Part shown: piece after piece, positions 8,070 through 56,769 of the stretch | Position numbering within the stretch: the stretch's first letter is position 1 | Layout of the letters: every line of letters begins with the position of its first letter | Assembly: GCF_058153355.1 (NCBI RefSeq) | Contig: NZ_CM177019.1 | DNA: 64,000 bases | Strand: one strand, 5' to 3' | Program-made: the position numbers and the translations under genes | Notes under the pieces: generated by a model | The model's input: only the letters and a program-made list of their open reading frames with translations | Databases searched by the model: none | What the model was told of the DNA's origin: nothing

Positions 8070-10078
<2,009 letters not shown>

Positions 10079-10086
10079 GAGAAAGT

Positions 10087-11307
10087 ATGACACCAGGCGG
10101 ACAAGCTCAGATAGGTAATGTTGATCTCGTAAAACAGCTTAACAGCGCGGCGGTTTATCGCCTGATTGACCAGTATGGGCCAATCTCGCGGATTCAGATT
10201 GCCGAGCAAAGCCAGCTTGCCCCCGCCAGCGTAACAAAAATTACGCGTCAGCTTATCGAACGCGGGCTGATTAAAGAAGTTGATCAGCAGGCCTCCACCG
10301 GGGGCCGCCGCGCTATCTCTATCGTCACCGAAACCCGCAATTTCCACGCAATCGGCGTACGGCTTGGTCGTCACGACGCCACCATCACCCTGTTTGATCT
10401 CAGCAGCAAAGTGCTGGCAGAAGAACATTACCCGCTGCCAGAACGTACCCAGCAGACGCTGGAACATGCCCTGCTGAATGCCATTGCTCAGTTTATTGAT
10501 AGCTACCAGCGCAAACTGCGCGAGCTGATCGCCATTTCCGTGATCCTGCCAGGGCTTGTTGACCCGGACAGCGGCAAAATTCATTACATGCCGCATATTC
10601 AGGTGGAAAACTGGGGACTGGTAGAAGCACTGGAAGAGCGTTTTAAAGTGACCTGTTTCGTCGGTCACGATATCCGTAGTCTGGCACTGGCAGAGCACTA
10701 CTTCGGTGCAAGTCAGGATTGCGAAGATTCCATTCTGGTGCGTGTCCATCGCGGGACCGGGGCCGGGATTATCTCTAATGGGCGCATTTTTATCGGCCGC
10801 AACGGCAACGTCGGTGAAATTGGCCATATTCAGGTCGAACCGCTGGGTGAACGCTGCCACTGCGGCAACTTTGGCTGCCTGGAAACTATCGCCGCCAACG
10901 CTGCCATTGAACAACGGGTGTTGAATCTGTTAAAGCAGGGCTACCAGAGCCGTGTGCCACTGGACGACTGCACCATCAAAACTATCTGCAAAGCCGCGAA
11001 CAAAGGCGATAGCCTGGCGTCGGAAGTGATTGAGTATGTCGGTCGTCATCTGGGCAAAACCATCGCCATTGCTATCAACTTATTTAATCCGCAAAAAATT
11101 GTTATTGCCGGTGAAATCACCGAAGCCGATAAAGTGCTGCTCCCTGCTATTGAAAGCTGCATTAATACCCAGGCGCTGAAGGCGTTTCGTACTAATCTGC
11201 CGGTGGTACGTTCTGAGCTGGATCACCGCTCGGCAATCGGCGCTTTTGCGCTGGTAAAACGCGCCATGCTCAACGGTATTTTGCTCCAGCATTTGCTGGA
11301 AAATTAA
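10087..11307 (+). CDS. nagC: NagC, ROK-family transcriptional repressor (406 aa)
   Basis: N-terminal HTH followed by ROK sugar-kinase-like domain with CHCGNFGCLE zinc motif. Confidence 0.95.
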   Translation: MTPGGQAQIGNVDLVKQLNSAAVYRLIDQYGPISRIQIAEQSQLAPASVTKITRQLIERGLIKEVDQQASTGGRRAISIVTETRNFHAIGVRLGRHDATITLFDLSSKVLAEEHYPLPERTQQTLEHALLNAIAQFIDSYQRKLRELIAISVILPGLVDPDSGKIHYMPHIQVENWGLVEALEERFKVTCFVGHDIRSLALAEHYFGASQDCEDSILVRVHRGTGAGIISNGRIFIGRNGNVGEIGHIQVEPLGERCHCGNFGCLETIAANAAIEQRVLNLLKQGYQSRVPLDDCTIKTICKAANKGDSLASEVIEYVGRHLGKTIAIAINLFNPQKIVIAGEITEADKVLLPAIESCINTQALKAFRTNLPVVRSELDHRSAIGAFALVKRAMLNGILLQHLLEN

Positions 11308-11354
11308 TGTGCTTTTATAGTGGCGCTTATTGTTGTCAATATTCTGGGTAGTCC

Positions 11355-12107
11355 ATGACCATTAAAAATGTAATTTGCGATATCGACGGCGTGCTGATGC
11401 ACGATAACGTCGCCGTACCGGGTGCAGCGGAATTTTTGCACGGGATTATGGATAAAGGCCTGCCGCTGGTGTTGCTGACCAACTATCCTTCGCAGACCGG
11501 GCAAGATCTGGCGAACCGCTTTGCCACTGCGGGTGTCGATGTGCCGGACAGCGTGTTTTATACCTCCGCGATGGCGACCGCCGATTTCCTGCGTCGCCAG
11601 GAAGGTAAGAAAGCGTATGTGGTGGGCGAAGGCGCACTGATTCATGAACTGTACAAAGCCGGTTTCACTATTACCGATGTGAACCCTGATTTTGTGATTG
11701 TTGGCGAAACGCGTTCCTACAACTGGGACATGATGCATAAAGCAGCCTATTTCGTCGCTAACGGTGCACGCTTTATCGCCACCAACCCGGACACCCACGG
11801 GCGCGGTTTTTATCCGGCCTGTGGCGCGCTATGCGCGGGGATCGAAAAAATCTCCGGACGTAAACCGTTCTATGTTGGTAAGCCGAGTCCGTGGATCATC
11901 CGCGCAGCATTAAACAAAATGCAGGCGCATTCGGAAGAAACGGTGATTGTCGGCGATAACTTGCGCACCGACATTCTGGCGGGCTTCCAGGCCGGTCTGG
12001 AGACGATTCTGGTGCTTTCTGGTGTTTCATCGCTCGACGATATCGACAGTATGCCGTTCCGCCCAAGCTGGATTTACCCGTCAGTCGCTGAAATCGACGT
12101 TATCTGA
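11355..12107 (+). CDS. nagD: UMP phosphatase NagD/UmpH (250 aa), HAD superfamily
   Basis: MTIKNVICDIDGVLMHDN... HAD motif I (DIDGV); correct length. Confidence 0.93.
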   Translation: MTIKNVICDIDGVLMHDNVAVPGAAEFLHGIMDKGLPLVLLTNYPSQTGQDLANRFATAGVDVPDSVFYTSAMATADFLRRQEGKKAYVVGEGALIHELYKAGFTITDVNPDFVIVGETRSYNWDMMHKAAYFVANGARFIATNPDTHGRGFYPACGALCAGIEKISGRKPFYVGKPSPWIIRAALNKMQAHSEETVIVGDNLRTDILAGFQAGLETILVLSGVSSLDDIDSMPFRPSWIYPSVAEIDVI

Positions 12108-12159
12108 ATACCACCCACGTCTGCGGACGTGGTTGGCTCTGATGACAAACGCCAAACTG

Positions 12160-13407
<1,248 letters not shown>

Positions 13408-13502
13408 CATGCCTGCAATCTGGGAAACCGGGGTAGAAAAAAACTTGCAGGCCATAACAGTATCTACGCAGCTCCTGCAATATATTGAATTTTCATGCTT
13501 TT

Positions 13503-15827: not shown

Positions 15828-15904
15828 GGCTACGTAGCTCAGTTGGTTAGAGCACATCACTCATAATGATGGGGTCACAGGTTCGAATCCCGTCGTAGCC
15901 ACCA
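15828..15904 (+). tRNA. metT: tRNA-Met (elongator, anticodon CAU)
   Basis: GGCTACGTAGCTCAGTTGGTTAGAGCACATCACTCATAATGATGGGG...GTAGCCACCA; CAT in anticodon loop, CCA end. Confidence 0.95.
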
Positions 15905-15912
15905 TCTTTTTT

Positions 15913-15997
15913 GCGGGAGTGGCGAAATTGGTAGACGCACCAGATTTAGGTTCTGGCGCCGCAAGGTGTGCGAGTTCAAGTCTCGCCTCCCGCACCA
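15913..15997 (+). tRNA. leuW: tRNA-Leu (anticodon UAG)
   Basis: GCGGGAGTGGCGAAATTGGTAGACGCACCAGATTTAGGTTCTGG...CCCGCACCA; long variable arm. Confidence 0.95.
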
Positions 15998-16020
15998 TTC
16001 ACCAGAAAGCGTTGTACGGA

Positions 16021-16095
16021 TGGGGTATCGCCAAGCGGTAAGGCACCGGTTTTTGATACCGGCATTCCCTGGTTCGAATCCAGGTACCCCAGCCA
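16021..16095 (+). tRNA. glnU: tRNA-Gln (anticodon UUG)
   Basis: TGGGGTATCGCCAAGCGGTAAGGCACCGGTTTTTGATACCGG...CCCCAGCCA. Confidence 0.95.
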
Positions 16096-16129
16096 TCTTC
16101 TTCGAATAAGCGGTTCACCGCCCGGTTAT

Positions 16130-16204
16130 TGGGGTATCGCCAAGCGGTAAGGCACCGGTTTTTGATACCGGCATTCCCTGGTTCGAATCCAGGTACCCCA
16201 GCCA
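16130..16204 (+). tRNA. glnW: tRNA-Gln (anticodon UUG), second copy
   Basis: Identical to the preceding tRNA-Gln(UUG). Confidence 0.95.
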
Positions 16205-16219
16205 TCGAAGAAACAATCT

Positions 16220-16296
16220 GGCTACGTAGCTCAGTTGGTTAGAGCACATCACTCATAATGATGGGGTCACAGGTTCGAATCCCGTCGTAGCCACCA
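16220..16296 (+). tRNA. metU: tRNA-Met (elongator, anticodon CAU), second copy
   Basis: Identical to the copy at 15828-15904. Confidence 0.95.
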
Positions 16297-16344
16297 AATT
16301 CTGAATGTGTCGAATGCGTTCGGCAAATTCACAAACCAATTTGT

Positions 16345-16419
16345 TGGGGTATCGCCAAGCGGTAAGGCACCGGATTCTGATTCCGGCATTCCGAGGTTCG
16401 AATCCTCGTACCCCAGCCA
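16345..16419 (+). tRNA. glnV: tRNA-Gln (anticodon CUG)
   Basis: TGGGGTATCGCCAAGCGGTAAGGCACCGGATTCTGATTCCGG...; anticodon is wild-type CUG, not the CUA of supE. Confidence 0.95.
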
Positions 16420-16456
16420 ATTTATTCAAGACGCTTATATTGTAAGTGCACCCAGT

Positions 16457-16531
16457 TGGGGTATCGCCAAGCGGTAAGGCACCGGATTCTGATTCCGGCA
16501 TTCCGAGGTTCGAATCCTCGTACCCCAGCCA
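16457..16531 (+). tRNA. glnX: tRNA-Gln (anticodon CUG), second copy
   Basis: Identical to the copy at 16345-16419. Confidence 0.95.
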
Positions 16532-22079: not shown

Positions 22080-23618
22080 ATGGCTTTTGCCTCATTAATT
22101 GAACGCCAGCGCATTCGCCTGCTGCTGGCGTTATTATTCGGTGCCTGCGGAACGCTGGCCTTCTCTCCTTACGATGTCTGGCCTGCGGCGATTATTTCGC
22201 TGATGGGACTTCAGGCGCTCACCTTTAACCGCCGTCCACTCCAGTCTGCCTCTATTGGCTTTTGCTGGGGATTTGGCCTGTTTGGCAGCGGTATTAACTG
22301 GGTCTATGTCAGCATCGCGACCTTTGGCGGAATGCCTGGCCCGGTTAACATCTTCCTGGTGGTGCTGCTGGCGGCGTATTTGTCGCTGTATACCGGACTG
22401 TTTGCTGGCGTGCTGTCGCGTCTGTGGCCGAAAACCACCTGGCTGCGCGTGGCGATTGCCGCCCCTGCTCTCTGGCAAGTGACCGAGTTTCTGCGCGGTT
22501 GGGTGCTGACTGGCTTCCCGTGGTTGCAGTTCGGCTATAGCCAGATTGACGGTCCGTTAAAAGGACTGGCACCGATAATGGGCGTGGAAGCCATTAACTT
22601 CCTGCTGATGATGGTAAGCGGCCTGCTGGCACTGGCGTTGGTCAAACGCAACTGGCGTCCGCTGGTGGTGGCCGTCGTGCTGTTTGCCCTTCCCTTCCCG
22701 CTACGTTACATCCAGTGGTTTACCCCGCAACCGGAGAAAACCATTCAGGTTTCGATGGTTCAGGGCGACATTCCGCAATCGCTGAAGTGGGATGAAGGCC
22801 AGCTTCTCAATACGCTGAAGATTTACTACAACGCAACGGCACCGCTGATGGGCAAGTCATCGCTGATTATCTGGCCTGAATCGGCGATAACCGACCTGGA
22901 AATTAATCAGCAGCCGTTCCTCAAAGCACTGGACGGTGAGTTGCGTGATAAAGGTAGCTCGCTGGTCACCGGGATTGTCGACGCGCGTCTCAATAAGCAG
23001 AATCGCTACGATACCTACAACACCATCATCACGCTGGGTAAAGGTGCACCGTATAGCTACGAATCAGCCGATCGCTATAACAAAAACCATCTGGTACCGT
23101 TTGGCGAGTTTGTCCCGCTGGAGTCGATTCTGCGTCCGTTAGCACCGTTCTTTGATCTGCCGATGTCGTCATTCAGCCGTGGACCATATATCCAACCACC
23201 GCTGTCGGTAAATGGTATTGAGCTTACTGCGGCTATTTGCTACGAGATCATTCTCGGCGAGCAAGTGCGCGATAACTTCCGCCCGGATACCGACTATCTG
23301 CTGACTATCTCCAACGATGCGTGGTTTGGTAAGTCTATTGGCCCATGGCAGCACTTTCAGATGGCGCGAATGCGTGCGCTGGAGCTGGCGCGCCCGCTGC
23401 TGCGTAGCACCAACAACGGCATTACGGCGGTGATTGGCCCGCAGGGTGAGATTCAGGCGATGATCCCGCAATTCACCCGCGAGGTGTTGACCACTAATGT
23501 GACGCCGACTACCGGACTCACACCGTACGCACGTACCGGCAACTGGCCGCTGTGGGTACTGACGGCACTGTTTGGTTTTGCCGCTGTGTTGATGAGACTG
23601 CGAGCACGTCAACGTTAA
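22080..23618 (+). CDS. lnt: Apolipoprotein N-acyltransferase Lnt (512 aa)
   Basis: Polytopic N-terminal region plus nitrilase-like domain; correct length. Confidence 0.96.
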
Positions 23619-23722
23619 TGTGAATGATGCACTGGCCAGCAAAATCGCATCATTTTTGCAGGCCAGATAAACTGTTCACACCACATCCGGTATCAACAAA
23701 ACGTACTTTCTCATTGAGCTGT

Positions 23723-23750
23723 GGGGCGTGATTATCATGCCCCTTTTTTT
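23723..23750. terminator. Bidirectional terminator at the convergent 3' ends of lnt and the rhomboid gene
   Basis: GGGGCGTGATTATCATGCCCC hairpin followed by TTTTTTT; overlaps the rhomboid gene stop codon. Confidence 0.6.
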
Positions 23751-25626
23751 ACGGTTCAGGGATACAAGCCACATCGCCATATTGGGGATGCCGAATAATT
23801 GCCTGCGGATCAAGCGAGCGCGTCCTGTCCATTTGGATTAACCCGTTCTTCGCCATAACAAATATCTTTCTACCATCCGCTGAAAAACGAAGATGATTAA
23901 CGTAGCTGGCAGGATAAACGCCAATAATCTGCCCGGCATTAATATTGAGCAGGATGACATAACCTTGCAGGCCATATGACACCAACGCTAAATACTGACC
24001 GTCCGGGCTAATACCCTCAACAGAATAAACGCTCCTGCTACACCATTGCGTCATAATGCTGGCTTGTTGATCCCCTGTGCTTATACGTGAAATCCCCTGA
24101 CTATCGGCAAAAATAACCTCACCATTTTTTGGTCGGAATCCCATCGCAGAAACGACACCACGCGCATCACCTGCGGGAAAGTCTTCTTTCTGATGCGTGA
24201 TGGTATTGATCCGCACGATGTTACCTCTGCCTGCTCCTGGAACCAGTAATGTTTTTTCATCCGGGGAAAGTGCCATAACCCAGGCGCCTGGTTTACCGCT
24301 CGTCCCCGTCCCGTCGTATTTCTCCAGTGCGATATCCGCCACATGCTGATAAGTCACCAGATCAATCGCTGACACACTATTACTGGTGCGATTCATCACC
24401 CAGGCTTTTGTGCCATCACGCGAGAGGATAAGGCTGTCAGGATGGGCGCCGGTGGTAATCGACTGAATAATCTCCCCCGTCGCCACGTTAACGACCGATA
24501 ATGCATTCGCTTCAAATGAAGTCGCATACAGCAACTTTTCATCGGGGCTTAACACCAGCGATCTGACGCCCTGATCTTTACAGCCACCACAATGTTTGAC
24601 TGACTTTTCTTTCGCTATGGGCGCTGTAAAGGTATGCAGGATTTTCTTTTGTCCGAGGTCGAAAACAACAATACTGTTCGTGTTTTCAATTGCGGCATAT
24701 AACGTATTACCATCCCGATTGATCGCCATATCATGGATATCGGCAATCTCAGCGAGCAAATCACCACTGGCCTGTTCACGACTTACCGGAGCGGATAATG
24801 TTTCCCTGAGGGCATTGCGTTCCTCCGCTAACTGCTGCTTTTTATGCCGTCGCTCTTGTTCAATCTCCTGCGGATAAAACTCTTCACGCAGGCTTTGCCT
24901 GACCTGCAAAACTGATTCATCAATCTGCTGCTGCACAAGCCAGATAGCCCCGGTCAGTAGAAGACTACCCGCAACAATAATCCCACCTTCCGTAACGAGC
25001 CGGTTTTGCCCAGATAAACGCGCACTCAGCCAACCCAACGCTCCACCTGCCATCAGGCCGCCAATGTGGCAAGCGTTATCTATTCCTGCTTGCCGGGCAC
25101 CATACAACAGTGTCAGCGCCACCATACCCAACAGAGAAAATACTCGCCGCTGGTTTTTATGGTGTGTACCCGCACCTGAAGAAAGCTGTGTTGCTATCGC
25201 AGCGCCAGCTATTCCCATAATTGCCCCGGATGCCCCAACGCTGATGACTATCTGCTCACTTTCGCGTAACGCATAACAGGCGCTGATGAGCCCACCAAAG
25301 ATGCCGGAGAATAACCAGATAATCAGGAGTCGCCATTTCCCCAGTATCCGTTCCGCCACTGTCCCCACCACCAGGAGTGCAAACATATTCATCAGCAAAT
25401 GGGAAAAACTACTGTGCAGAAAAACACTGCTCAATAAGCGCCAGGGTTCACCCGACAACGTGAGAGAGGCAACGTTAGCGCCGAGATGGATGAGTGCGGA
25501 TTGATCGACTTCTTCATAACTCATCCATTGTGCGAGGTAACAAAATATCCCAACACATAGCGCAAAAAGGATCAGGGTTATTGCGGGTAATTGAACATTT
25601 AACGGCTTAACCGAAGATGCAGACAT
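23749..25626 (-). CDS. Rhomboid-family intramembrane serine protease fused to a C-terminal YVTN-type beta-propeller domain (about 625 aa)
   Basis: ATG at 25626 after AAGGAAG gives MSASSVKPLNV...; rhomboid motifs WRLLSSVFLHSSFSHLLMNM, GASGAIMG (Ser) and ACHIGGLMAG (His); 7th TM helix, coiled-coil linker, then repeated ...LYAAIENTNSIVVFDL / LYATSFEANALSVVNVATG / AWVMNRTSNSVSAIDL blades. Confidence 0.8.
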   Translation of the reverse strand: MSASSVKPLNVQLPAITLILFALCVGIFCYLAQWMSYEEVDQSALIHLGANVASLTLSGEPWRLLSSVFLHSSFSHLLMNMFALLVVGTVAERILGKWRLLIIWLFSGIFGGLISACYALRESEQIVISVGASGAIMGIAGAAIATQLSSGAGTHHKNQRRVFSLLGMVALTLLYGARQAGIDNACHIGGLMAGGALGWLSARLSGQNRLVTEGGIIVAGSLLLTGAIWLVQQQIDESVLQVRQSLREEFYPQEIEQERRHKKQQLAEERNALRETLSAPVSREQASGDLLAEIADIHDMAINRDGNTLYAAIENTNSIVVFDLGQKKILHTFTAPIAKEKSVKHCGGCKDQGVRSLVLSPDEKLLYATSFEANALSVVNVATGEIIQSITTGAHPDSLILSRDGTKAWVMNRTSNSVSAIDLVTYQHVADIALEKYDGTGTSGKPGAWVMALSPDEKTLLVPGAGRGNIVRINTITHQKEDFPAGDARGVVSAMGFRPKNGEVIFADSQGISRISTGDQQASIMTQWCSRSVYSVEGISPDGQYLALVSYGLQGYVILLNINAGQIIGVYPASYVNHLRFSADGRKIFVMAKNGLIQMDRTRSLDPQAIIRHPQYGDVACIPEP

Positions 25627-26081
25627 AAGGTGATTCTTCCTTGAAAAGACAGGTAAAAAAGCATTTTTCCCGTGTGCAGTTATCATCCCGGCAAACGTCC
25701 CATACCGAAAAGTTAACTCTGTCCGAAATATGACTTTTTCAGCCTGAAATTACAATCGTAATTAATTCACCCCTAAGTATTTTTTGGCATGTAAGTTGCT
25801 TTATTTACTGTGTAAGCAATGAAATCAGCCGCAACGCAACCGGGTTGCACCAACACAAATCAGCGGTAGCACCAAAAAGGTGCGGTTTAAGAGTTTTGCT
25901 TCGGAATGGTGCGGCGCATCTCGCAAAAACAAACAATAAAACATCAATATCTTTACATTTAACCAAACTAAATGTTACCTAACAAACACAACACTGCACA
26001 ATAAAGTTGCAGATGATAACAACACAAACACTCACAACGGGTATCCATGCGTTCTTAACGCAGAAGATAAAGGAGTTGGAT

Positions 26082-26990
26082 ATGCAATTACGTAAACCTG
26101 CCACAGCAATCCTGGCCCTGGCGCTTTCCGCAGGACTGGCACAGGCAGATGACGCCGCCCCGGCAGCAGGCAGTACGCTGGACAAAATCGCCAAAAACGG
26201 TGTGATTGTCGTCGGTCACCGTGAATCTTCAGTACCTTTCTCTTATTACGACAATCAGCAAAAAGTGGTGGGTTACTCGCAGGATTACTCCAACGCCATT
26301 GTTGAAGCAGTGAAAAAGAAACTCAACAAACCGGACTTGCAGGTGAAATTGATTCCGATCACCTCACAAAACCGTATTCCGCTGCTGCAAAACGGCACTT
26401 TCGATTTTGAATGTGGTTCTACCACCAACAACGTCGAACGCCAGAAACAGGCGGCTTTCTCCGACACTATTTTCGTGGTCGGTACGCGCCTGCTGACAAA
26501 AAAAGGCGGCGATATTAAAGATTTTGCCGATCTGAAAGACAAAGCCGTCGTAGTCACTTCCGGCACCACCTCTGAAGTTTTGCTCAACAAACTGAATGAA
26601 GAGCAAAAAATGAACATGCGCATCATCAGCGCCAAAGATCACGGTGACTCTTTCCGCACCCTGGAAAGCGGTCGTGCCGTTGCCTTTATGATGGATGACG
26701 CTCTGTTAGCCGGTGAGCGAGCGAAAGCGAAGAAACCAGACAACTGGGAAATCGTCGGCAAGCCGCAGTCTCAGGAAGCCTACGGTTGCATGTTGCGTAA
26801 AGACGATCCGCAGTTCAAAAAGCTGATGGATGACACTATCGCTCAGGTGCAGACCTCCGGTGAAGCGGAAAAATGGTTTGATAAGTGGTTCAAAAATCCA
26901 ATTCCGCCGAAAAACCTGAACATGAATTTCGAACTGTCGGACGAAATGAAAGCACTGTTCAAAGAACCGAATGACAAGGCACTGAACTAA
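26082..26990 (+). CDS. gltI: Glutamate/aspartate periplasmic binding protein GltI (302 aa)
   Basis: ATG at 26082 after AAGGAG gives MQLRKPATAILALALSAGLAQA signal peptide; correct length. Confidence 0.95.
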   Translation: MQLRKPATAILALALSAGLAQADDAAPAAGSTLDKIAKNGVIVVGHRESSVPFSYYDNQQKVVGYSQDYSNAIVEAVKKKLNKPDLQVKLIPITSQNRIPLLQNGTFDFECGSTTNNVERQKQAAFSDTIFVVGTRLLTKKGGDIKDFADLKDKAVVVTSGTTSEVLLNKLNEEQKMNMRIISAKDHGDSFRTLESGRAVAFMMDDALLAGERAKAKKPDNWEIVGKPQSQEAYGCMLRKDDPQFKKLMDDTIAQVQTSGEAEKWFDKWFKNPIPPKNLNMNFELSDEMKALFKEPNDKALN

Positions 26991-27146
26991 TTACAAGAAC
27001 CAGGGGCGGAAATTCCAGCCCTCTCGATTGTTACGTAGCACGGACAGACTATACGCCTGATGGTCGTTCCCCATCGGGCCTGAAAACCGCAATACGCTGG
27101 GTAACAATCTTCGAGGGTAGCAGTTAACGCTGCTACCCTTTTTTTT
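26991..27146 (+). ncRNA. sroC: SroC sRNA region (processed from the gltI-gltJ intergenic part of the gltIJKL mRNA)
   Basis: Location only: intergenic segment ending at the intrinsic terminator; SroC is known to derive from this position; sequence identity not verified from memory. Confidence 0.45.
27115..27146 (+). terminator. Intra-operon rho-independent terminator between gltI and gltJ
   Basis: GGGTAGCAGTTAACGCTGCTACCC hairpin followed by TTTTTTTT. Confidence 0.7.
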
Positions 27147-27159
27147 CTGGAGTAGATTT

Positions 27160-30435: not shown

Positions 30436-32106
30436 ATGGATAATGCAGAACTCGCCATTGGTATCTATCTCGGTACTACCAATAGTTTAATTGCCGTCTG
30501 GAAAGACGGTGCCGCGCAATTAATTCCAAATAAGTTCGGTGAATATTTAACACCATCCATAATTAGCATGGATGAAAATAATCATATTTTAGTCGGAAAA
30601 CCGGCTGTATCACGGCGCACTTCGCATCCGGATAAAACCGCCGCATTATTTAAACGCTCAATGGGCAGTAATACCAACTGGCGGTTAGGCAGCGACACAT
30701 TTAACGCACCAGAACTGTCCTCTTTGGTCTTACGTTCATTAAAAGAAGATGCCGAAGAATTTCTGCAACGTTCTATTAAAAATGTGGTGATCTCCGTTCC
30801 GGCTTATTTCAGCGATGAACAACGCAAGCATACCCGTTTAGCAGCGGAGTTAGCCGGGTTAAATGCGGTACGCTTAATTAATGAACCCACAGCAGCTGCA
30901 ATGGCGTATGGCCTGCATACCCAACAAAATACCCGTTCGCTGGTGTTTGATCTCGGTGGCGGCACGTTTGACGTTACGGTGCTTGAGTACGCCACGCCGG
31001 TGATTGAAGTTCACGCCTCCGCTGGCGACAACTTTCTTGGCGGCGAAGATTTTACTCATATGCTGGTGGATGAAGTTTTAAAACGCGCCGCAGTGGCTAA
31101 AAACATGCTCAACGAAAGTGAGCTGGCAGCCCTGTACACCAGCGTGGAAGCGGCAAAATGCAGCAATCAATTACCGCTACAAATTAGCTGGCAGTATCAG
31201 GAAGAAACGCGTGAGTGCGAATTTTACGAGAACGAACTGGAAGATTTGTGGTTGCCGCTGCTCAATCGCTTGCGAGTGCCGATTGAACAGGCGTTGCGCG
31301 ATGCGCGTCTGAAACCGAGTCAAATCGACAGTCTGGTGCTGGTTGGCGGCGCGTCACAAATGCCGCTAGTGCAACGAATCGCCGTGCGTCTGTTTGGCAA
31401 ATTGCCATATCAAAGTTACGACCCGAGCACCATTGTCGCGCTGGGCGCAGCGATCCAGGCCGCCTGCCGCTTACGCAGCGAAGACATTGAAGAAGTGATC
31501 CTCACCGATATTTGCCCCTACTCCTTAGGTGTTGAAGTTAACCGCCAGGGCGTTTCCGGCATTTTCTCACCGATTATTGAACGAAACACCACTGTACCGG
31601 TGTCGCGTGTAGAAACTTACTCGACCATGCACCCGGAACAGGATTCAATTACGGTTAACGTCTATCAGGGAGAAAACCACAAAGTTAAAAATAACATTCT
31701 GGTGGAATCCTTCGATGTGCCGTTGAAGAAAACCGGGGCTTATCAGTCGATTGATATTCGCTTTAGTTATGATATCAACGGGTTGCTTGAAGTTGACGTG
31801 CTTCTGGAAGACGGCAGCGTTAAGTCCAGAGTCATTAATCACAGTCCTGTAACATTGAGCGCACAGCAGATTGAAGAGAGTCGGACGCGGTTATCCGCAT
31901 TGAAAATTTATCCACGCGATATGCTCATCAACCGCACCTTTAAGGCCAAACTGGAAGAGTTGTGGGCGCGGGCGCTGGGTGACGAGCGAGAAGAGATCGG
32001 CCGGGTGATCACCGATTTTGATGCGGCGTTGCAGCCAAACGATATGGCCCGCGTCGATGAAGTTCGGCGACGGGCGAGCGATTATTTGGCTATTGAGATC
32101 CCTTAA
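30436..32106 (+). CDS. hscC: Hsp70-family chaperone HscC/Hsc62 (556 aa)
   Basis: Hsp70 signatures IGIYLGTTNS, DLGGGTFD, LVGGASQMP; correct length. Confidence 0.95.
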   Translation: MDNAELAIGIYLGTTNSLIAVWKDGAAQLIPNKFGEYLTPSIISMDENNHILVGKPAVSRRTSHPDKTAALFKRSMGSNTNWRLGSDTFNAPELSSLVLRSLKEDAEEFLQRSIKNVVISVPAYFSDEQRKHTRLAAELAGLNAVRLINEPTAAAMAYGLHTQQNTRSLVFDLGGGTFDVTVLEYATPVIEVHASAGDNFLGGEDFTHMLVDEVLKRAAVAKNMLNESELAALYTSVEAAKCSNQLPLQISWQYQEETRECEFYENELEDLWLPLLNRLRVPIEQALRDARLKPSQIDSLVLVGGASQMPLVQRIAVRLFGKLPYQSYDPSTIVALGAAIQAACRLRSEDIEEVILTDICPYSLGVEVNRQGVSGIFSPIIERNTTVPVSRVETYSTMHPEQDSITVNVYQGENHKVKNNILVESFDVPLKKTGAYQSIDIRFSYDINGLLEVDVLLEDGSVKSRVINHSPVTLSAQQIEESRTRLSALKIYPRDMLINRTFKAKLEELWARALGDEREEIGRVITDFDAALQPNDMARVDEVRRRASDYLAIEIP

Positions 32107-32114
32107 ACACGGCT

Positions 32115-32212
32115 GCCGGATGCGGCATAAACGCCTTATCCTGCCTACTCGTAGGTCGGATAAGATGCGTTAGCATCGCATCCGACGTTGAAGGATAAGA
32201 TGCGTTAGCCTC
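32115..32212. repeat. Cluster of REP elements (BIME) between hscC and djlC
   Basis: GCCGGATGCGGCATAAACGCCTTATCCTGCCTAC and GTAGGTCGGATAAGATGCGTTAGCATCGCATCCGAC. Confidence 0.55.
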
Positions 32213-32216
32213 ACAT

Positions 32217-33669
32217 CTAACTGAACAACATCGCGATTTTACCGAGCGCGTAACCTATCACCAGAACCGTTAAGCTGATTTTGATAATACTGGCAATGCT
32301 CTGTGGTTTTTCACTCTCATTATTCTTCTCTTCGTGTTCTTCAGGTGCTGGCTCGTCGATATCTTCTTCCACCGGCTCGAGCTTCACTTTCGTCAACAGC
32401 ATGTGAGTAATAATGGCTTCTAACGGATGTGCTTCTCCTCGTTCCAGTCGCGCATTCAGGCGGGCCAGCATCTCTTGTTTCGGGAACGCTTCCAGCACAA
32501 CCTGTTCCGCTACCCGATACAAATCCAGTAACGGTGAATCTTGTTCTGTCTCGCTACCGACTCTCGATTTCCACCATGCCCATGCTTTGCGCTTGAAGAA
32601 TAACGACTCAATAAACGATTGACCTAACGGCGATAATTTTCCGCTATGTAAAATTTCCGCCCATAACAGCCGCGTCCGGGCGCTCTCACCAGGAACATAT
32701 TTCAACGGTTGACCTTGAGCATCTATCATGCTTCGCGCTTCGATAACCATCACTAATAACGCGAAATAATCCGGGCAATGACGCTTGCTCCACTGCAACA
32801 ACAAATTATCAGCTTGTGTAGATGGGTAACTCTCCCGGTATGCGCAGAGATCGGCAAGCAGGCTTTCCCCCTCGCCACAGTACAACCGTTGCGCACACTG
32901 GTAATAACGGGCATCTTCGCTTTCTGGTTCTTCCGTTTGCCACTGTTGCGCTACAGAAATGAGTTCCGCCATACCTGTTTGCACCGAGCTATACCAGCGC
33001 AACAATTTGCGATGCAACTTCGCATCATCGGGAATGAACCACGGACCTTCCATCGCCAAAAACGCAGTGACATAGTCAGGGTGATAACGGCAGCAGCGTT
33101 CCAATGCGAAGTAATACTCAACAGTCTGGTTCTGCAACGCGACGGGATATTCCAGAAGGCTTAGAAAATCGAAACAATCCCCGGCCTGAATGGCCTCAAG
33201 AAAAGCCTCCCGTTCTTCCTCGTCCATGCCTTCACTTTCATTAAACGAATGCCAGTTCAAACGCTCTGCCAGCAAAGAAGCACAATTTAATGAAAGATAT
33301 CGCGCTTCTGTAGCGATTGCACACAGCGGCCAGCGTAATTGATCGACATCCTCCATGTTCCATGGTATTTAATTGCTGAATAAATTTCTGCCAGGCGGAG
33401 GGCTGAAAACGATCGCTTTCCGAAGCCAGTAAGGTTCTGAACGCTTTCAGTGCTTCGTGCTCTTCTGCAAGATTTTTCTCGTCATCAGCATTTTTTTCGT
33501 CCGGATTGACAGCCAGTCGCAGCGCCTCTTCATAGGCCTGGCGTAATGCTTTAAACCCCTGCGGATCGGTTTCGGGATGACACAACGGTAAGCGAGCAAG
33601 ATAAGCCTGGCGGATAATGTCTATTTGCGTCGTGCTTTCAATTTCGAGGATTTGCCAACATGTTTTCAT
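32217..33669 (-). pseudogene. djlC: djlC (J-domain co-chaperone of HscC), split by a frameshift into 142-aa and 379-aa overlapping ORFs
   Basis: ORF 33241..33669 ([15 protein letters not shown]...[10 protein letters not shown] then out of frame) and ORF 32217..33356 ([15 protein letters not shown]...) are collinear with intact paralog DjlB (...[24 protein letters not shown]...). Confidence 0.65.
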
Positions 33670-34373
33670 AGGTCGCTTACATCCTTAAGCGTTACCGGGC
33701 ATTCAGGCTGGACAATTAATGGCTGCCAGGGAAGCGTGGCATAGAAACGGTCGCTTCCCGCTGCCAGCTCTTCGAACATCCGACTCCCGGCGTTATCGTA
33801 TTTGTACAGGGTTAGCGCCTCGCGTAGCGAAGCGTTGTCTTCACACTGGGAAGATTGCCAGTAGAGACGTCCTAATGAATAGGCGGCAAAATAGTGAATC
33901 CAGCTGTGATAATAATGGTGAGCTCGTACATAAACGCGCGATTGCAGCCATAAACTCTCTTCTTCCGTCAGCCAATTGTTGAGCACACCGACCCGCGATA
34001 AAAACCCCATCCGCACATAATCCCAGGCTTTGATTCCCCCTTCCCCACAACACATAGCGGTTTGGGCAACGAATTGGGTATAAATCAACCCTCTCTCCGA
34101 GCCGCCAGCAATTAATGTTTTCCACTCTTCAGGGGAAGAGCGATGCCATGTCAGATATAAGCCAGCTAAATCATTGGCATGACCATCATCGGTCATCTGA
34201 TAAATAGTCTGAATTAAATCATCACGATTATTTATTCCCCAGGATGATGAGAGATCGAATTCTTTTATCCCAGTATACATTTTTGGCGAGTCATGCGCTG
34301 GCTTGCAACCCTGATTAAGTATTTCCATGGGTGCAGAAAGCGCAAAAAGAAGATATTGTTCTTCCTTATTCAT
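33666..34373 (-). CDS. ybeU: YbeU, DUF1266-family protein (235 aa)
   Basis: [23 protein letters not shown]...; paralog of YbeR; stop overlaps djlC start (ATGA). Confidence 0.9.
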
Positions 34374-34473
34374 TTGTTAATAATCCCTTAAGTGCATTAA
34401 CTGACTACTTTTTTATTATCGATGAGTATAAACTTGACGTTTTCAAAATAAAAGAAAATAGAAGTATTCATGC

Positions 34474-35028
34474 ATGAATAAAAAATTAATATATATATTC
34501 GCAATATTTATAGTTGCGGCAATTACCTGTATTAGCCAACCCAACAAAACGACCCTGCGCGATAAAGCTATGGCGAATTATGTCTTTGATTATTTAAGCT
34601 CACCGGGCAGTCTTCCGTTTACCACGGCAGCAACAGAGCTTTCCGCCATTCATGGTCACTCAACGTCGCAATATAGACTTGGCGAATTTTATCTTCATGG
34701 TAGCGATGGTAAGCCTCTGGATTATACAAAGGCGAGATACTGGTATGAGCAATCAGCGGAACAGGAAAATCCACGCGCGCAAAGTCAACTGGGATGGATC
34801 TACCTGAAAGGTTTGGGAGTCAATCCCGATACCCGTAAAGCAATTCTCTGGTATAAGGAAGCAGCTGAACAAGGGCATGTTCATGCACAATACACGTTGG
34901 GTTTGATCTACAGAAACGGCACGGGCATTAGCACCAACAATTATGAAGCTCGCAAATGGTTAGAACTGGCGGCAGAGCAACATTATAAAAATGCGGAAAG
35001 ATTACTTGCAGAGCTTCCCGCACATTAA
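34474..35028 (+). CDS. ybeT: YbeT, Sel1-repeat protein (184 aa)
   Basis: N-terminal hydrophobic segment then Sel1 repeats ([15 protein letters not shown]..., [15 protein letters not shown]...). Confidence 0.9.
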
Positions 35029-35037
35029 CGTCGACTG

Positions 35038-36465
35038 TCACCCGAACAGATGGAGTATTTTCCCTATCAAACCGGCAAAGATAAAAATGTAGAAAATAAT
35101 TTTGATGACGCCCAGGCAGCCCGGCCCACCATCGTCAACGGGCATCGACTGCGGTTGCGGCTCCGGTTCGACGGTTTGCTTCTCGGTAAAATTTGCCGCC
35201 TGAATTAATAATCGACGAATCATTAATGCTTCCAGTGGACAACGATCTTCTGCATCAAGGCGGCTGACGATCGGCATTAATGATTCTTCTGTCGGTTGGC
35301 TGGCCTGAACTAATTGTTTAGCAACTAAATATAATGGCCATAAGGGATGTTCTGTATCACGCGTGAGTGAGATCCGCGGCTTACGTCCTTTGTGCAAAAC
35401 CATCTCGACCAGAGAACGCCCCAGCGCAGAGAGTTTTTCATCACTGAGTATTTCGTATAAATGAAAACGCGTACGAGCGCTGTCACCAGGGACATAAAGT
35501 AGCGGTTTTCCCTGATCGTTAACCAGATCACGCGCTTCAATCATCATCACCACTAACGGGTAATAATCGACCCGATGCTGACGGCACCATTGCAACATTA
35601 AAGCATCCGCCTGGGTGGAGGGATACTCGCGCCAGTAGTCACAAAGTTCTGCCAGCAGGCTTTCGCCTTCTCCACAATAGACGCGTTGCGCGTATTCATA
35701 ATAACGCGCATCTTCATTATCAGGTTCAGCTTCCCGCCACGATCGGGCGTAATCCAGAAGTTCGGGGATATCCAGACGGCTTGTGCTATACCAGCGGAGT
35801 AAATTTTTGTGCAAATTTGCATCATCGGGGATAATCACTGCGCGATGTTGCGCTAAATACAATGTCAGCCATTCTGGATGCGATGACCAAATCCGAGCGA
35901 ACATTTGGTAAAAATCAATGGTGTCATTTTGTACGGCAACGGGCAGATGCAGAATGGTCTGGAAGTTAAAAACATTCCCCTTCGCAATGGCATATAAAAA
36001 GGATTCCAGTTCTTCTTCGTCTATTTCCCCGACGTTTTCCTCCTGCAACCACCGCAATCTTTCTGCTAATAACACCACGCACTCGAAGGATAAATGGGCA
36101 GTGTTCATAGCTATTGTGCACAGCGACCAGCGTAATTCATCAATATCTTCCATCGAGCAATAATTTAATTGCTGAATGAATCGCTGCCAGGCAGAGGGCA
36201 GAAAACGTTCGCTATCAGAGGCGAGTAACGCACGAAAGGCGAGCAGAATTTCATGTTCTGCAACTTCATGTTCTTCTGGTTGCCAAACAGATTTAGCAGG
36301 CGACTGCGCAATCCGTAGCGCGTCCTCATACGCCTGACGAAGTTGTTTAAAACCCTGCGGTTCGGTTTCTGGATGAAAGGACGGTAACAGCGCCAGATAA
36401 GCGCGGCGGATAATATCGACGTCAGTCGTTTCCTCTATTTCGAGAATATTCCAGCAATTTTTCAT
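35038..36465 (-). CDS. djlB: DjlB, tail-anchored J-domain co-chaperone (475 aa)
   Basis: N-terminal J-like domain (HPE in place of canonical HPD) and C-terminal hydrophobic tail [23 protein letters not shown]. Confidence 0.9.
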
Positions 36466-37178
36466 AGGTCGCTCATATCCTTAAGCGTTTCCGGACATGT
36501 GGGGTAGTCAGCCAGTGGTTGCCAGGGTAAGGTCGCGTAATATGCATCGTCACTGGCAATTAATTGATAAAACATATCATTGCCGGAATCGTCGTATTCT
36601 TTGCGTGCCAATGTTTCCCGCAATAACGGTAAATTGTCATCATCAGGAGACTGCCAGTATTGCCGGCCAAAGGTATAACCGGCGAAATACTGCCGCCAGC
36701 TGGTATAATAACGTAGCGCCCGCAGATGAAGACGCGATTGGATCCACAGGCTTTCTTCTTCGCTGAGCCAGTTATTAAGTACGCCCATCCGGCTTAAAAA
36801 ACCCATACGGACATAATCCCAGGCTTTTATACCGCCTTCGCCACAACATTCAGCAGTGCTGGCGGCAAACTGCGCGTAAGCCTGGCCTGACTCATTTAAC
36901 TCACTGGTATAGTTACGCCATTCACATGGTGAATAACGAAACCAGCGGTGATAAAAACCAACCAACCGCGCAGCATGACCGTTATCCATCATTCGGTGAA
37001 TTGTGCGCAGCAGGTCATCACGGTCATCAATTCCCCAGGAGGAAGAAAGGTCAAAAAAGCGTGTACCTAAATACATTTTGGGCGATGAATGCGAAGGTAA
37101 ACAGCATTCATTGCGTATTTCCATCGGAGTGGAAAGTGCAAACAATATTTTTTGCGACTCCATGTCCATATAATCCAT
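36462..37178 (-). CDS. ybeR: YbeR, DUF1266-family protein (235-238 aa; start at 37178 or 37169)
   Basis: [26 protein letters not shown]...; paralog of YbeU; stop overlaps djlB start (ATGA). Confidence 0.88.
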
Positions 37179-37332
37179 CCTTAAATATTCATTTAATGAA
37201 TATAAACTACATTGCGAGGCTCATTTATTTATACTTTTCTGACGCGACATAATACGCATAAAATAAGACTTGCGCAAAAATGGAATACATAAAAATATAA
37301 TATATTTTCTCCGTAACCATAAGGAAATGATA

Positions 37333-38310
37333 ATGATTTTTACATCAAGTTGCTGCGATAATTTATCAATAGATGAGATTATCGAACGTGCTGAAAAAGG
37401 AGATAGTGAAGCACAATATATTGTTGGGTTTTATTATAATCGCGATAGCGCAATTGACTCTCCGGACGACGAAAAAGCCTTCTACTGGCTGAAGCTTGCC
37501 GCTGAACAAGGCCATTGTGAAGCACAATATTCCTTAGGGCGGAAATACTCCGAGGATAAAAGCCGTCATAAAGATAATGAGCAAGCCATCTTTTGGCTGA
37601 AAAAAGCTGCCCTACAAGGCCATACTTTCGCTTCCAACGCCCTTGGCTGGATACTGGATCGTGGAGAAGACCCCAACTATAAAGAAGCGGTTGCCTGGTA
37701 TCAGATAGCCGCGGAGAGCGGAATGCCTTATGCGCAAAATAATCTTGGGTGGATGTACAGAAATGGCAACGGAGTCACACAAGATTATGCGCTGGCATTT
37801 TTCTGGTACAAACAAGCTGCATTGCAAGGCCATAGTTACGCACAAGACAATCTGGCCGATCTTTATGAAGACGGTAAAGGTGTTGCCCAAAACAAAGCTC
37901 TTGCCGCATTCTGGTATTTGAAAAGCGCACAGCAAGGTAATCGGCACGCTCAATTTCAAATTGCGTGGGATTATAACGCTGGCGAAGGGGTTGACCAGGA
38001 CTATAAGCAAGCAATGTACTGGTATCTGAAGGCTGCCGCTCAGGAAAGCGTCGGCGCTTACGTTAACATCGGCTATATGTATAAACACGGTCAAGGCGTT
38101 GAGAAGGATTATCAGGCAGCCTTTGAATGGTTTACGAAAGCCGCTGAATGCGATAATGCCACTGCCTAGTATAACCTTGCCATTATGTATCATTACGGAG
38201 AAGGAAGACCTGTCGATCTCCGACAGGCTCTCGATCTGTATCGTAAAGCTCAGTCATCCGGTACCAAGGATGTCAGTCAAAAAATCCGTGAGATTGAAGA
38301 TTTACTGTAG
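37333..38310 (+). pseudogene. ybeQ: ybeQ (Sel1-repeat protein) with in-frame amber stop at 38167-38169; would be 325 aa if read through
   Basis: Sel1 repeats continue uninterrupted across the TAG (...KAAECDNATA*YNLAIMYHYGEGRPVDLRQALDLYRKAQ...); the stop sits where other repeats have Gln (AQxxLG). Confidence 0.6.
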
Positions 38311-56337: not shown

Positions 56338-56367
56338 AAAAAAAACCCGCTGATTAAGCGGGTTTTG
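56338..56367. terminator. Bidirectional terminator between crcB and cspE
   Basis: AAAAAAACCCGCTGATTAAGCGGGTTTTGAATT. Confidence 0.7.
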
Positions 56368-56385
56368 AATTCTTGCTGACGTATC

Positions 56386-56595
56386 TTACAGAGCGATTAC
56401 GTTTGCAGCAGAAGGGCCTTTGGCACCGTTAGTGATTTCGAACTCTACGCGCTGACCTTCAGCAAGAGTTTTAAAACCATTAGTCTGGATTGCAGAGAAG
56501 TGTACGAACACGTCTTTGCTGCCGTCTTCCGGAGTAATGAAACCGAATCCTTTGGACTCATTAAACCACTTAACGTTACCTTTAATCTTAGACAT
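56386..56595 (-). CDS. cspE: Cold-shock-domain protein CspE (69 aa)
   Basis: [37 protein letters not shown]... (RNP1/RNP2 motifs). Confidence 0.95.
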
Positions 56596-56769
56596 CAAAA
56601 TTACCTTTACATGAAAAATAGACACAAATGCTGTGTCGGTTACCAGTACACCAATTGTGGTACGCTTTGTCCAGTGCAACTTTACTAAAAAGTGATAAAA
56701 GTCGCGTTATTTTTGATGTTAATTATTTTACTCATTGATTTTAAAGAAGTTACTAAAATTTCATTTGTC

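Follow-up and report, generated by a model that had tools for sequence, protein, structure and literature searches.

A DUF1266 Protein as a Likely Third Component of the HscC Chaperone System

The hscC locus and its genes

The window analyzed here is a stretch of 64,000 nucleotides from contig NZ_CM177019.1 (NCBI RefSeq assembly GCF_058153355.1), and this report concerns the segment at positions 30436–38310 of it. By combining a listing of open reading frames (ORFs) with annotated genomes, we identified this segment as the hscC-djlC-ybeU-ybeT-djlB-ybeR-ybeQ locus of Escherichia coli, with the gene order of b0644–b0650 in strain K-12. It encodes the Hsp70 family chaperone HscC, its J-protein partners DjlB and DjlC, two DUF1266 proteins (YbeR and YbeU), and two Sel1-repeat proteins (YbeT and YbeQ). 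HscC is treated in reviews as a two-part system, composed of HscC and DjlB/DjlC. Our analysis indicates that the DUF1266 protein is likely to be a third component, marked by the joining of its gene to the J-protein gene in at least ten genera. A previous reading of the sequence alone (the sequence-only reading) had singled out the segment as a tandemly duplicated three-gene module next to hscC; the feature is real and correctly placed, yet it is the already known and annotated HscC locus. Its genes and intergenic regions are the following:

30436–32106, plus strand: hscC, Hsp70 family chaperone HscC, 556 aa, 97.5% identical to K-12, with a tyrosine at residue 11.
32217–33669, minus strand: djlC pseudogene, HPE J-protein and HscC co-chaperone, split into ORFs 33241–33669 (142 aa, N-terminal part) and 32217–33356 (C-terminal part).
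33666–34373, minus strand: ybeU, intact, DUF1266 protein of 235 aa, whose TGA stop overlaps the djlC ATG.
34374–34473, no strand: divergent intergenic region between ybeU-djlC and ybeT, AT-rich (GC about 0.42), presumably with divergent promoters.
34474–35028, plus strand: ybeT, intact, Sel1-repeat protein of 184 aa with an N-terminal hydrophobic signal or anchor, lying between the two DUF1266–J-protein pairs.
35038–36465, minus strand: djlB, intact, HPE J-protein of 475 aa with a J-domain (residues 4–47), a TPR-like helical body, and a C-terminal anchor (residues 450–468).
36462–37169, minus strand: ybeR, DUF1266 protein of 235 aa from the K-12-equivalent start (238 aa from an alternative upstream ATG at 37178), whose TGA stop overlaps the djlB ATG.
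37170–37332, no strand: divergent intergenic region between ybeR-djlB and ybeQ, AT-rich (GC about 0.42).
37333–38310, plus strand: ybeQ pseudogene, cytoplasmic Sel1-repeat protein (325 aa in K-12) with the nonsense change W279*.

The locus is flanked by gltLKJ-rihA on one side and by ybeL-leuS on the other, as in K-12 (b0643–b0652), and the whole window is collinear with K-12 711744..649898 except for two insertions. Identity of leuS in the window reaches 99.2% against complete E. coli genomes, whereas the locus itself is 90–95% identical in most E. coli genomes that carry it and 95–96.3% in the 33 closest ones, its proteins being 90–97% identical to their K-12 orthologs. It is thus best described as a divergent allele of a region that varies within E. 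coli. HscC is a full-length Hsp70, with nucleotide-binding and substrate-binding domains, and is orthologous to K-12 HscC over all 556 aa; its matches to the NCBIfam DnaK and HscA models (E about 1e-113) are below the equivalog cut-offs, as expected for the HscC branch. NCBIfam contains no model for DjlB, DjlC, YbeR, or YbeU. An Rfam scan of the whole window gave no match within 30436–38310, and a scan for promoter and terminator consensus sequences found sites in numbers lower than, or no higher than, those in shuffled sequences.

The DUF1266–J-protein pair and its conservation

Pairwise alignments show that the locus carries two paralogous units, with 142 of 235 residues identical between YbeR and YbeU (60%) and 239 of 475 between DjlB and DjlC (50%); the DNA of the two DUF1266–J-protein units is 65.6% identical over 1417 nt. 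In each unit, the stop codon of the DUF1266 gene and the start codon of the J-protein gene overlap by 4 bp, within an ATGA that can be read directly at 33666–33669 and 36462–36465. The HPD tripeptide of canonical J-domains is replaced by HPE in DjlB and DjlC, as well as in nearly all fetched homologs. Both proteins end in the tail anchor that the sequence-only reading had described, a single hydrophobic segment near the C-terminus in the absence of an N-terminal signal, with Kyte-Doolittle maxima (19-residue window) of 2.37 at residues 450–468 of 475 in DjlB and 1.99 at residues 464–482 of 483 in DjlC. The Pfam DnaJ domain (PF00226) is weak on DjlB residues 4–47 (E 1.2e-3) when taken alone; across the J-protein family it matches 32 of 32 members with E ≤ 0.1, including 14 with E ≤ 1e-3 (best, 2.1e-8), so that the J-like domains are genuine, although divergent, J-domains.

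Most of these features have been published before and are not new, namely the paralogy of DjlB and DjlC, their HPE motif, their tail anchoring, and their partnership with HscC. The locus is the HscC-DjlC/DjlB (Hsc62/Hsc56) system of E. coli, with the same genes, order, flanks, HPE motifs, and anchors, and the same 50% identity between DjlB and DjlC, which are described as tail-anchored proteins encoded beside hscC (PMC8215388). Stimulation of the HscC ATPase is reported for DjlC (Kluck et al. 2002, via PMC8215388), though not for DjlB; DjlC is known to insert into the inner membrane, and deletion of hscC, or of djlB together with djlC, leads to Cd2+ sensitivity (PMC8215388). The HPE of DjlB/DjlC is described as the only tolerated variant of HPD and as functional with HscC (PMC13254874); HPE J-proteins have also been counted at large scale (PMC10410713). 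In their architecture, DjlB and DjlC recall the TPR-containing J-proteins DNAJC3 (p58IPK) and DNAJC7, and the membrane-anchored bacterial DjlA, with which they share no sequence homology and from which they differ by an N-terminal J-domain with HPE and a C-terminal anchor. The DUF1266 partner, by contrast, is absent from the published picture, which has two components. In the literature that we searched, DUF1266 appears only in the expression tables of one paper, and ybeU and ybeR only with respect to regulation or a frameshift, no function being given, in agreement with the earlier statement that the role of these proteins is undescribed.

We addressed the conservation of the pair by gathering loci with DUF1266 as the sole bait. 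A scan of one genome per species, in which the bait was an alignment of seven closer sequences, yielded 78 loci, and look-ups of individual matches brought the total to 83. The fetched loci come from Pseudomonas, Gilliamella, Erwinia, Rahnella, Pectobacterium, Limnobaculum, Leminorella, Klebsiella, non-coli Escherichia, and a Vibrionaceae-like genome. In essentially every locus not cut by a contig end, a DjlB/DjlC-like gene directly follows the DUF1266 gene on the same strand, and in 77 of the 83 loci an HscC homolog (55–64% identical outside Enterobacteriaceae) lies just past the J-protein gene in convergent orientation, the distance between the two having a median of about 25 bp. The exact ATGA stop/start overlap was found in 78 of 84 pairs, the remainder overlapping by 1 or 10 nt, and a purine-rich stretch lies 10–13 nt upstream of the J-protein ATG. 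The trio is still present in the Vibrionaceae-like genome, where DUF1266 identity falls to 29%, while the genes that flank it vary between genera. Co-conservation of DUF1266 and J-protein genes beyond E. coli, and the identity of the J-like domains as J-domains, had been set beforehand as the tests on which the sequence-only reading could fail; the former is kept in all these genera, and the latter is borne out by the Pfam matches above. The translational coupling proposed from the two overlaps of the window likewise finds support in the pairs from elsewhere, and the conserved order and overlap strongly bear out a functional tie between DUF1266 and the J-protein. Order, strand, and 4-bp overlap persist across Escherichia, Pseudomonas, Gilliamella, and the Vibrionaceae-like genome while the flanks change, a pattern that would hardly be expected unless co-expression is under selection.

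A few peculiar cases were met during these searches. The DjlC ortholog of Escherichia sp. E1V33 (fetched locus, 9705–11156) has YPE instead of HPE, which is possibly inactivating. A HipA/HipB toxin–antitoxin pair lies near one of the Leminorella DUF1266–J-protein loci. A fragment at a contig end of Paenibacillus sp. USDA918EY translates into a sequence 100% identical to residues 81–209 of K-12 YbeU and probably reflects contamination or a chimeric contig; the AlphaFold database entry A0A077ZGN2, a "DnaJC13" of Trichuris trichiura that is 92% identical to YbeU, can be likened to this case.

The claim that the duplicated module comprised three genes, including a Sel1 gene, holds for the DUF1266 and J-protein pairs and fails for the Sel1 proteins. 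YbeT and YbeQ share 54 of 170 aligned residues (32%), a similarity at the level of Sel1 repeats only, and they differ in length (184 vs. 325 aa) and in the N-terminal hydrophobic segment, found in YbeT only. In Salmonella and Citrobacter, an ortholog of ybeQ (50–59% identical) is followed by abutting orthologs of ybeR-djlB and ybeU-djlC, and then by hscC; ybeT is absent from the loci examined in these two genera despite the presence of both pairs, which indicates that the duplicated unit is the two-gene DUF1266–J-protein pair. Moreover, all YbeT orthologs with at least 70% identity and an organism name are labeled Escherichia coli, the next matches being generic Sel1 proteins with at most 43% identity. 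None of the 83 fetched loci outside Escherichia has a Sel1 gene, the ybeQ-bearing loci of Salmonella and Citrobacter standing apart from this set. In neighbor-joining trees, YbeR-type and YbeU-type proteins and their J-protein partners form mirrored a and b clades, each of which holds members from Escherichia, Salmonella, and Citrobacter; the duplication thus predates the split of the three genera.

Both Sel1 proteins match Sel1 repeats (partial NCBIfam matches, and PF08238 on YbeT relatives), as do the Sel1-like repeat proteins MotX, ExoR, AlgK, and MerG. Unlike members of these named families, however, they score far below the family cut-offs, which points to generic repeat proteins, and their distribution is narrow, with YbeT in Escherichia only, YbeQ in Escherichia, Salmonella, and Citrobacter, and neither in the conserved cassette. 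On the evidence of gene content, ybeQ and ybeT are best regarded as lineage-restricted additions, the conserved third gene being hscC rather than a Sel1 gene. The conserved core, as judged from gene order, is a DUF1266 gene followed by an HPE J-protein gene and a convergent hscC, without Sel1.

The J-protein itself has an older and longer form that lies beyond the published description of the HscC system. Outside Enterobacteriaceae, it is about 890–910 aa long and shares its first 310–440 residues with DjlB/DjlC, while its C-terminus contains two to three hydrophobic segments and matches DUF805 in 20 of 32 members. The ancestral protein would accordingly have been about 900 aa long, with a DUF805-like polytopic membrane end, and the tail-anchored enterobacterial J-protein of about 475 aa is best explained as a shortened derivative of it. 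BLASTP of YbeR and YbeU against one long-form Pseudomonas J-protein revealed no similarity (E > 0.9). Long J-proteins (e.g., the product of gene 9693–12383 in a Pseudomonas locus) also carry an RRLHD-like motif, and precomputed annotation assigns them to a newer Pfam family, PF27158 (DjlB_C_2nd).

Decay and variation of the locus in E. coli

In contrast to the published system, the copy in the window carries three private lesions. Two of them had been recognized at the outset. In djlC, an additional base at about position 33363 shifts the frame at codon 103, and in ybeQ, TGG is changed to TAG at 38167–38169, so that W279* removes the last 47 residues. The third, overlooked by the sequence-only reading, is in hscC, where GAT is replaced by TAT at 30466–30468, giving D11Y (GIYLGTT vs. 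GIDLGTT in K-12). GIDLGTT is the phosphate-1 motif of Hsp70s and its aspartate is catalytic, corresponding to D8 of DnaK and D10 of Hsc70. An aspartate is found at this position in all of 73 homologs and in all of eight E. coli genomes inspected. The HscC of the window thus lacks the catalytic phosphate-1 aspartate and is a member of the Hsp70 family by descent; D11Y probably inactivates it.

The 65-nt stretch with the D11Y codon and the 71-nt stretch with the djlC insertion have no 100% match in any complete E. coli genome, and the 66-nt stretch with the ybeQ stop has none among the 101 complete E. coli genomes that match it. Sequencing error is an unlikely source, since the 47 K-12 genes that lie wholly in the window but outside the locus show no disruption; djlC and ybeQ are the only two disrupted genes among the 54 K-12 genes wholly inside it, so that the lesions cluster in the locus and do not reflect general noise. 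We also rejected programmed frameshifting in djlC, the additional base being absent from K-12 and the 71-nt stretch that carries it having no exact match in any complete E. coli genome. The lesions had been taken as a hint of redundancy or ongoing decay. Decay agrees well with D11Y and with the state of the locus in other strains, whereas redundancy fits less well: with HscC probably dead, the intact ybeR-djlB pair is likely functionless here, and the whole HscC system of this strain is probably dead.

Similar damage is frequent among E. coli strains. Out of 5426 complete E. coli genomes, 4453 match the locus and 3146, less than 60%, do so with at least 80% coverage. The locus is intact in three of the eight genomes inspected (K-12, MFDS1022581, and 504239), while the other five show independent lesions, IS1 insertions, or deletions. 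Strain 2017-02-2CC has a stop in djlB; O157:H7 MB41-1 has a stop in djlC and one in ybeQ that differs from that of the window; RM14721 (NZ_CP027105.1) contains two copies of IS1, one in ybeT and one in djlB; and TUM11356 lacks djlB and ybeR as well as the 5′ portion of ybeQ through a deletion, with the same 63% coverage in four more genomes. In NCTC10537, a single DUF1266–J-protein pair is left, in which a frameshifted djlC lies beside ybeR, and ybeU, ybeT, and djlB are missing; this arrangement fits recombination between the paralogous units. Its ybeQ bears a third, different stop. The number of units also varies among strains (NZ_CP135656.1, NZ_LR134248.1).

Where the genes are intact, the ratio of nonsynonymous to synonymous divergence (dN/dS) is 0.06–0.15, compared with 0–0.03 in the flanks, indicating purifying selection. 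Synonymous divergence (dS) from K-12 is 0.49 for ybeR and 0.38 for ybeT, as against 0.14–0.20 for neighboring genes, a pattern suggestive of old alleles, of recombination, or of gene conversion within the locus. With regard to expression, ybeT and ybeU-djlC belong to the H-NS/SlyA regulon of K-12 (PMC5797941), and mutation of hns in strain 042 leads to strong de-repression of a DUF1266 gene (PMC7582179).

Elsewhere in the window, the two insertions relative to K-12 each encode a protein. The first, a 1278-bp insertion at 12186–13463 between umpH (nagD) and asnB, encodes a 326-aa IS110-family RNA-guided transposase (12378–13358, plus strand; NCBIfam NF033542, E 3e-75) of a size similar to IS621. 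The second, at 23603–25836, occupies a site between lnt and gltI where K-12 has IS5, and encodes a protein of 645 aa in which a rhomboid-like membrane domain is fused to a YVTN beta-propeller (23749–25686, minus strand). Rfam matches outside the locus include the small RNA sroC (26986–27148), a cspA-type thermoregulator upstream of cspE (56338–56751, minus strand), and a cluster of seven tRNAs (15828–16528).

Possible roles of the DUF1266 protein

YbeR matches Pfam PF06889 (DUF1266) over residues 41–216 (E 1.9e-45), and the domain is present in all YbeU relatives. The family is small, with 377 clusters at E ≤ 1e-3 in a HMMER search of 1.84 billion representative proteins. An AlphaFold2 model of YbeU, built from a 90-sequence alignment, is a compact, all-alpha fold of 12 helices with high scores (predicted local distance difference test [pLDDT] 94.9, predicted template modeling score [pTM] 0.92). 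No solved relative of this fold was found, and a Foldseek search of the model against AFDB50 returned almost only DUF1266 proteins, a few of which are E. coli-like copies under other names. To model the pair, YbeR and residues 1–445 of DjlB were joined by a 30-residue linker, (GGGGS)6, and folded as one chain with 23 paired sequences from adjacent genes. The resulting model has a pLDDT of 83.3 and a pTM of 0.77 over 710 residues, low confidence being limited to the linker, the loop between the J-domain and the body, and the tail. Such a pTM for three ordered parts suggests that these take up a single arrangement relative to one another, which amounts to a predicted complex of YbeR and DjlB.

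We propose that DUF1266 is a stoichiometric partner of the membrane-anchored HPE J-protein by which HscC is targeted, the three genes forming the core cassette, and hold this reading to be somewhat better than an even bet. In this scenario, coupled translation of a single mRNA would yield the DUF1266 protein and the J-protein in about equal amounts, as the conserved overlap implies, and the two would form a complex at the inner membrane, on its cytoplasmic side, for which the linked-chain model gives weak support. The HPE J-domain would recruit ATP-bound HscC and trigger hydrolysis, as described in the literature for DjlC, and HscC would then clamp a putative client presented by a platform made of the TPR-like body and DUF1266. 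The pair, with its J-protein already shortened to the tail-anchored form of about 475 aa, would have been duplicated in the common ancestor of Escherichia, Salmonella, and Citrobacter, so that YbeR-DjlB and YbeU-DjlC may serve as alternative targeting modules for one HscC. YbeQ and YbeT would have joined the locus later, as lineage-restricted genes outside the core.

Several observations weigh against this reading. E. coli can do without the locus, which is often broken and is missing from about 18% of complete genomes, and in exponential phase the levels of HscC, DjlB, and DjlC are too low for detection by proteomics (PMC8215388). Two Leminorella loci have the DUF1266–J-protein pair (with a J-protein of about 905 aa) and no hscC within 9 kb. 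The predicted binding of DUF1266 to the J-protein comes from a linked-chain workaround judged by pTM and pLDDT only, and is no more than suggestive. Finally, DUF1266 domains also occur without a nearby J-protein or Hsp70, for instance fused to Cu_amine_oxidN1 or in tandem, and the residues conserved family-wide (W45, H65, W117, D118, R121, R127, E139, W158, Y161, G168, W172, and W216) are common to these J-unlinked proteins as well. The domain may thus act in its own right and be more than a subunit, and the pattern of conserved residues hints at an intrinsic binding or catalytic site.

The latter point would also agree with a scenario in which DUF1266 is the dedicated client of HscC and DjlB/DjlC, delivered by the J-protein and remodeled or activated by HscC, since conserved polar and aromatic residues shared with J-unlinked homologs suggest an activity of its own. 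The strict co-conservation of DUF1266, J-protein, and hscC is compatible with this scenario, and there is a precedent in HscA, another specialized bacterial Hsp70, which has one dedicated client encoded nearby (PMC8215388). The HscA-HscB-IscU system indeed resembles the present one in combining a specialized Hsp70 with a J-protein of its own and with a third, co-conserved protein whose gene lies next to theirs. However, IscU is an established client that has a defined binding motif, and its gene shows no translational coupling to hscB, whereas the role of DUF1266 is putative. The exact 4-bp overlap in 78 of 84 pairs is also more typical of fixed-ratio subunits than of a client and the chaperone acting on it, the linked model would place DUF1266 at a defined position on the J-protein, and the compact and very confident DUF1266 model bears no sign of a need for remodeling. 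We therefore consider the client scenario rather improbable.

A comparably small chance attaches to DUF1266 being a regulator that holds DjlB/DjlC off HscC until a signal releases them, by analogy with CbpM, which blocks the J-domain of CbpA. CbpA-CbpM provides a precedent in which a small protein is encoded together with a single bacterial J-protein and is specific to it (PMC8215388). Like CbpM, DUF1266 is a small cytoplasmic protein from the same operon as one J-protein, for which it is probably specific; the co-divergence of the cognate a and b pairs and the predicted YbeR-DjlB complex are both in line with this possibility. On the other hand, the gene order is opposite, cbpM being downstream of cbpA, CbpA works with DnaK and not with HscC, and DUF1266 has no sequence or fold similarity to CbpM. 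The output of the linked model is also silent on contacts between DUF1266 and the J-domain.

The variability of the locus in E. coli could alternatively mean that the cassette is an accessory module related to stress, envelope, or conflict, for example in membrane surveillance of phages or toxins, that is gained, lost, and silenced like accessory islands. Its polymorphic presence (4453 of 5426 genomes with any match, 3146 at 80% coverage or more), the recurrent and independent pseudogenes, IS1 insertions, and deletions, the H-NS/SlyA-type silencing, the protein divergence and dS above those of the flanks, and the change of flanking genes between genera all argue in this direction, as does a transposon-directed insertion-site sequencing experiment in which ybeT ranked in the top five for enrichment of insertions once cells had been challenged with phage Arnold (bioRxiv 10.1101/2025.12.01.691526). 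Yet the Keio ybeT knockout behaved like the wild type in the phage assay of the same study. A scan of the seven proteins against PADLOC-DB v2 gave no match for HscC, DjlB, DjlC, YbeR, or YbeU, and the two Sel1 proteins matched PtuA only marginally, via their repeats (E about 1e-4), with no stretch passing alone. Furthermore, no effector-like domain (nuclease, pore, or NADase) was seen, and the dN/dS values reflect ordinary purifying rather than diversifying selection. This makes an accessory conflict module doubtful, more so than a client or a CbpM-like regulator.

A related and equally speculative idea, to which we give little credence, is that HscC, the HPE J-protein, and DUF1266 together constitute a horizontally mobile and self-contained membrane machine that would survey a membrane- or invader-derived signal rather than take part in general folding, with DUF1266 as its sensor or ligand-binding subunit and with the ancestral J-protein of about 900 aa contributing a TPR-like body and a polytopic end. 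If true, it would explain the silencing, variability, and repeated loss of the locus in E. coli. Finally, a chance adjacency of the DUF1266 and J-protein genes, kept through shared operon history without functional meaning, is very improbable: although no experimental link between the two was found in the searched literature, order, strand, and 4-bp overlap are conserved down to 29% protein identity while the flanks change.

To our knowledge, HscC is the only one of the three Hsp70s of E. coli without a known client or physiological role, more than 20 years after its biochemistry was described. The new point of this analysis is that a DUF1266 gene, whose function is not known, is coupled to the J-protein gene beside hscC; the stoichiometric partnership that we favor would give this orphan Hsp70 a concrete third component. 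The analysis also corrects the picture of the module, in which the Sel1 proteins are lineage add-ons. Genera that have a single long-form cassette, and thus no redundancy, may be better model organisms for this system than E. coli, whose strains differ widely in the intactness of their HscC systems, a difference that matters for the reading of E. coli knockout phenotypes.

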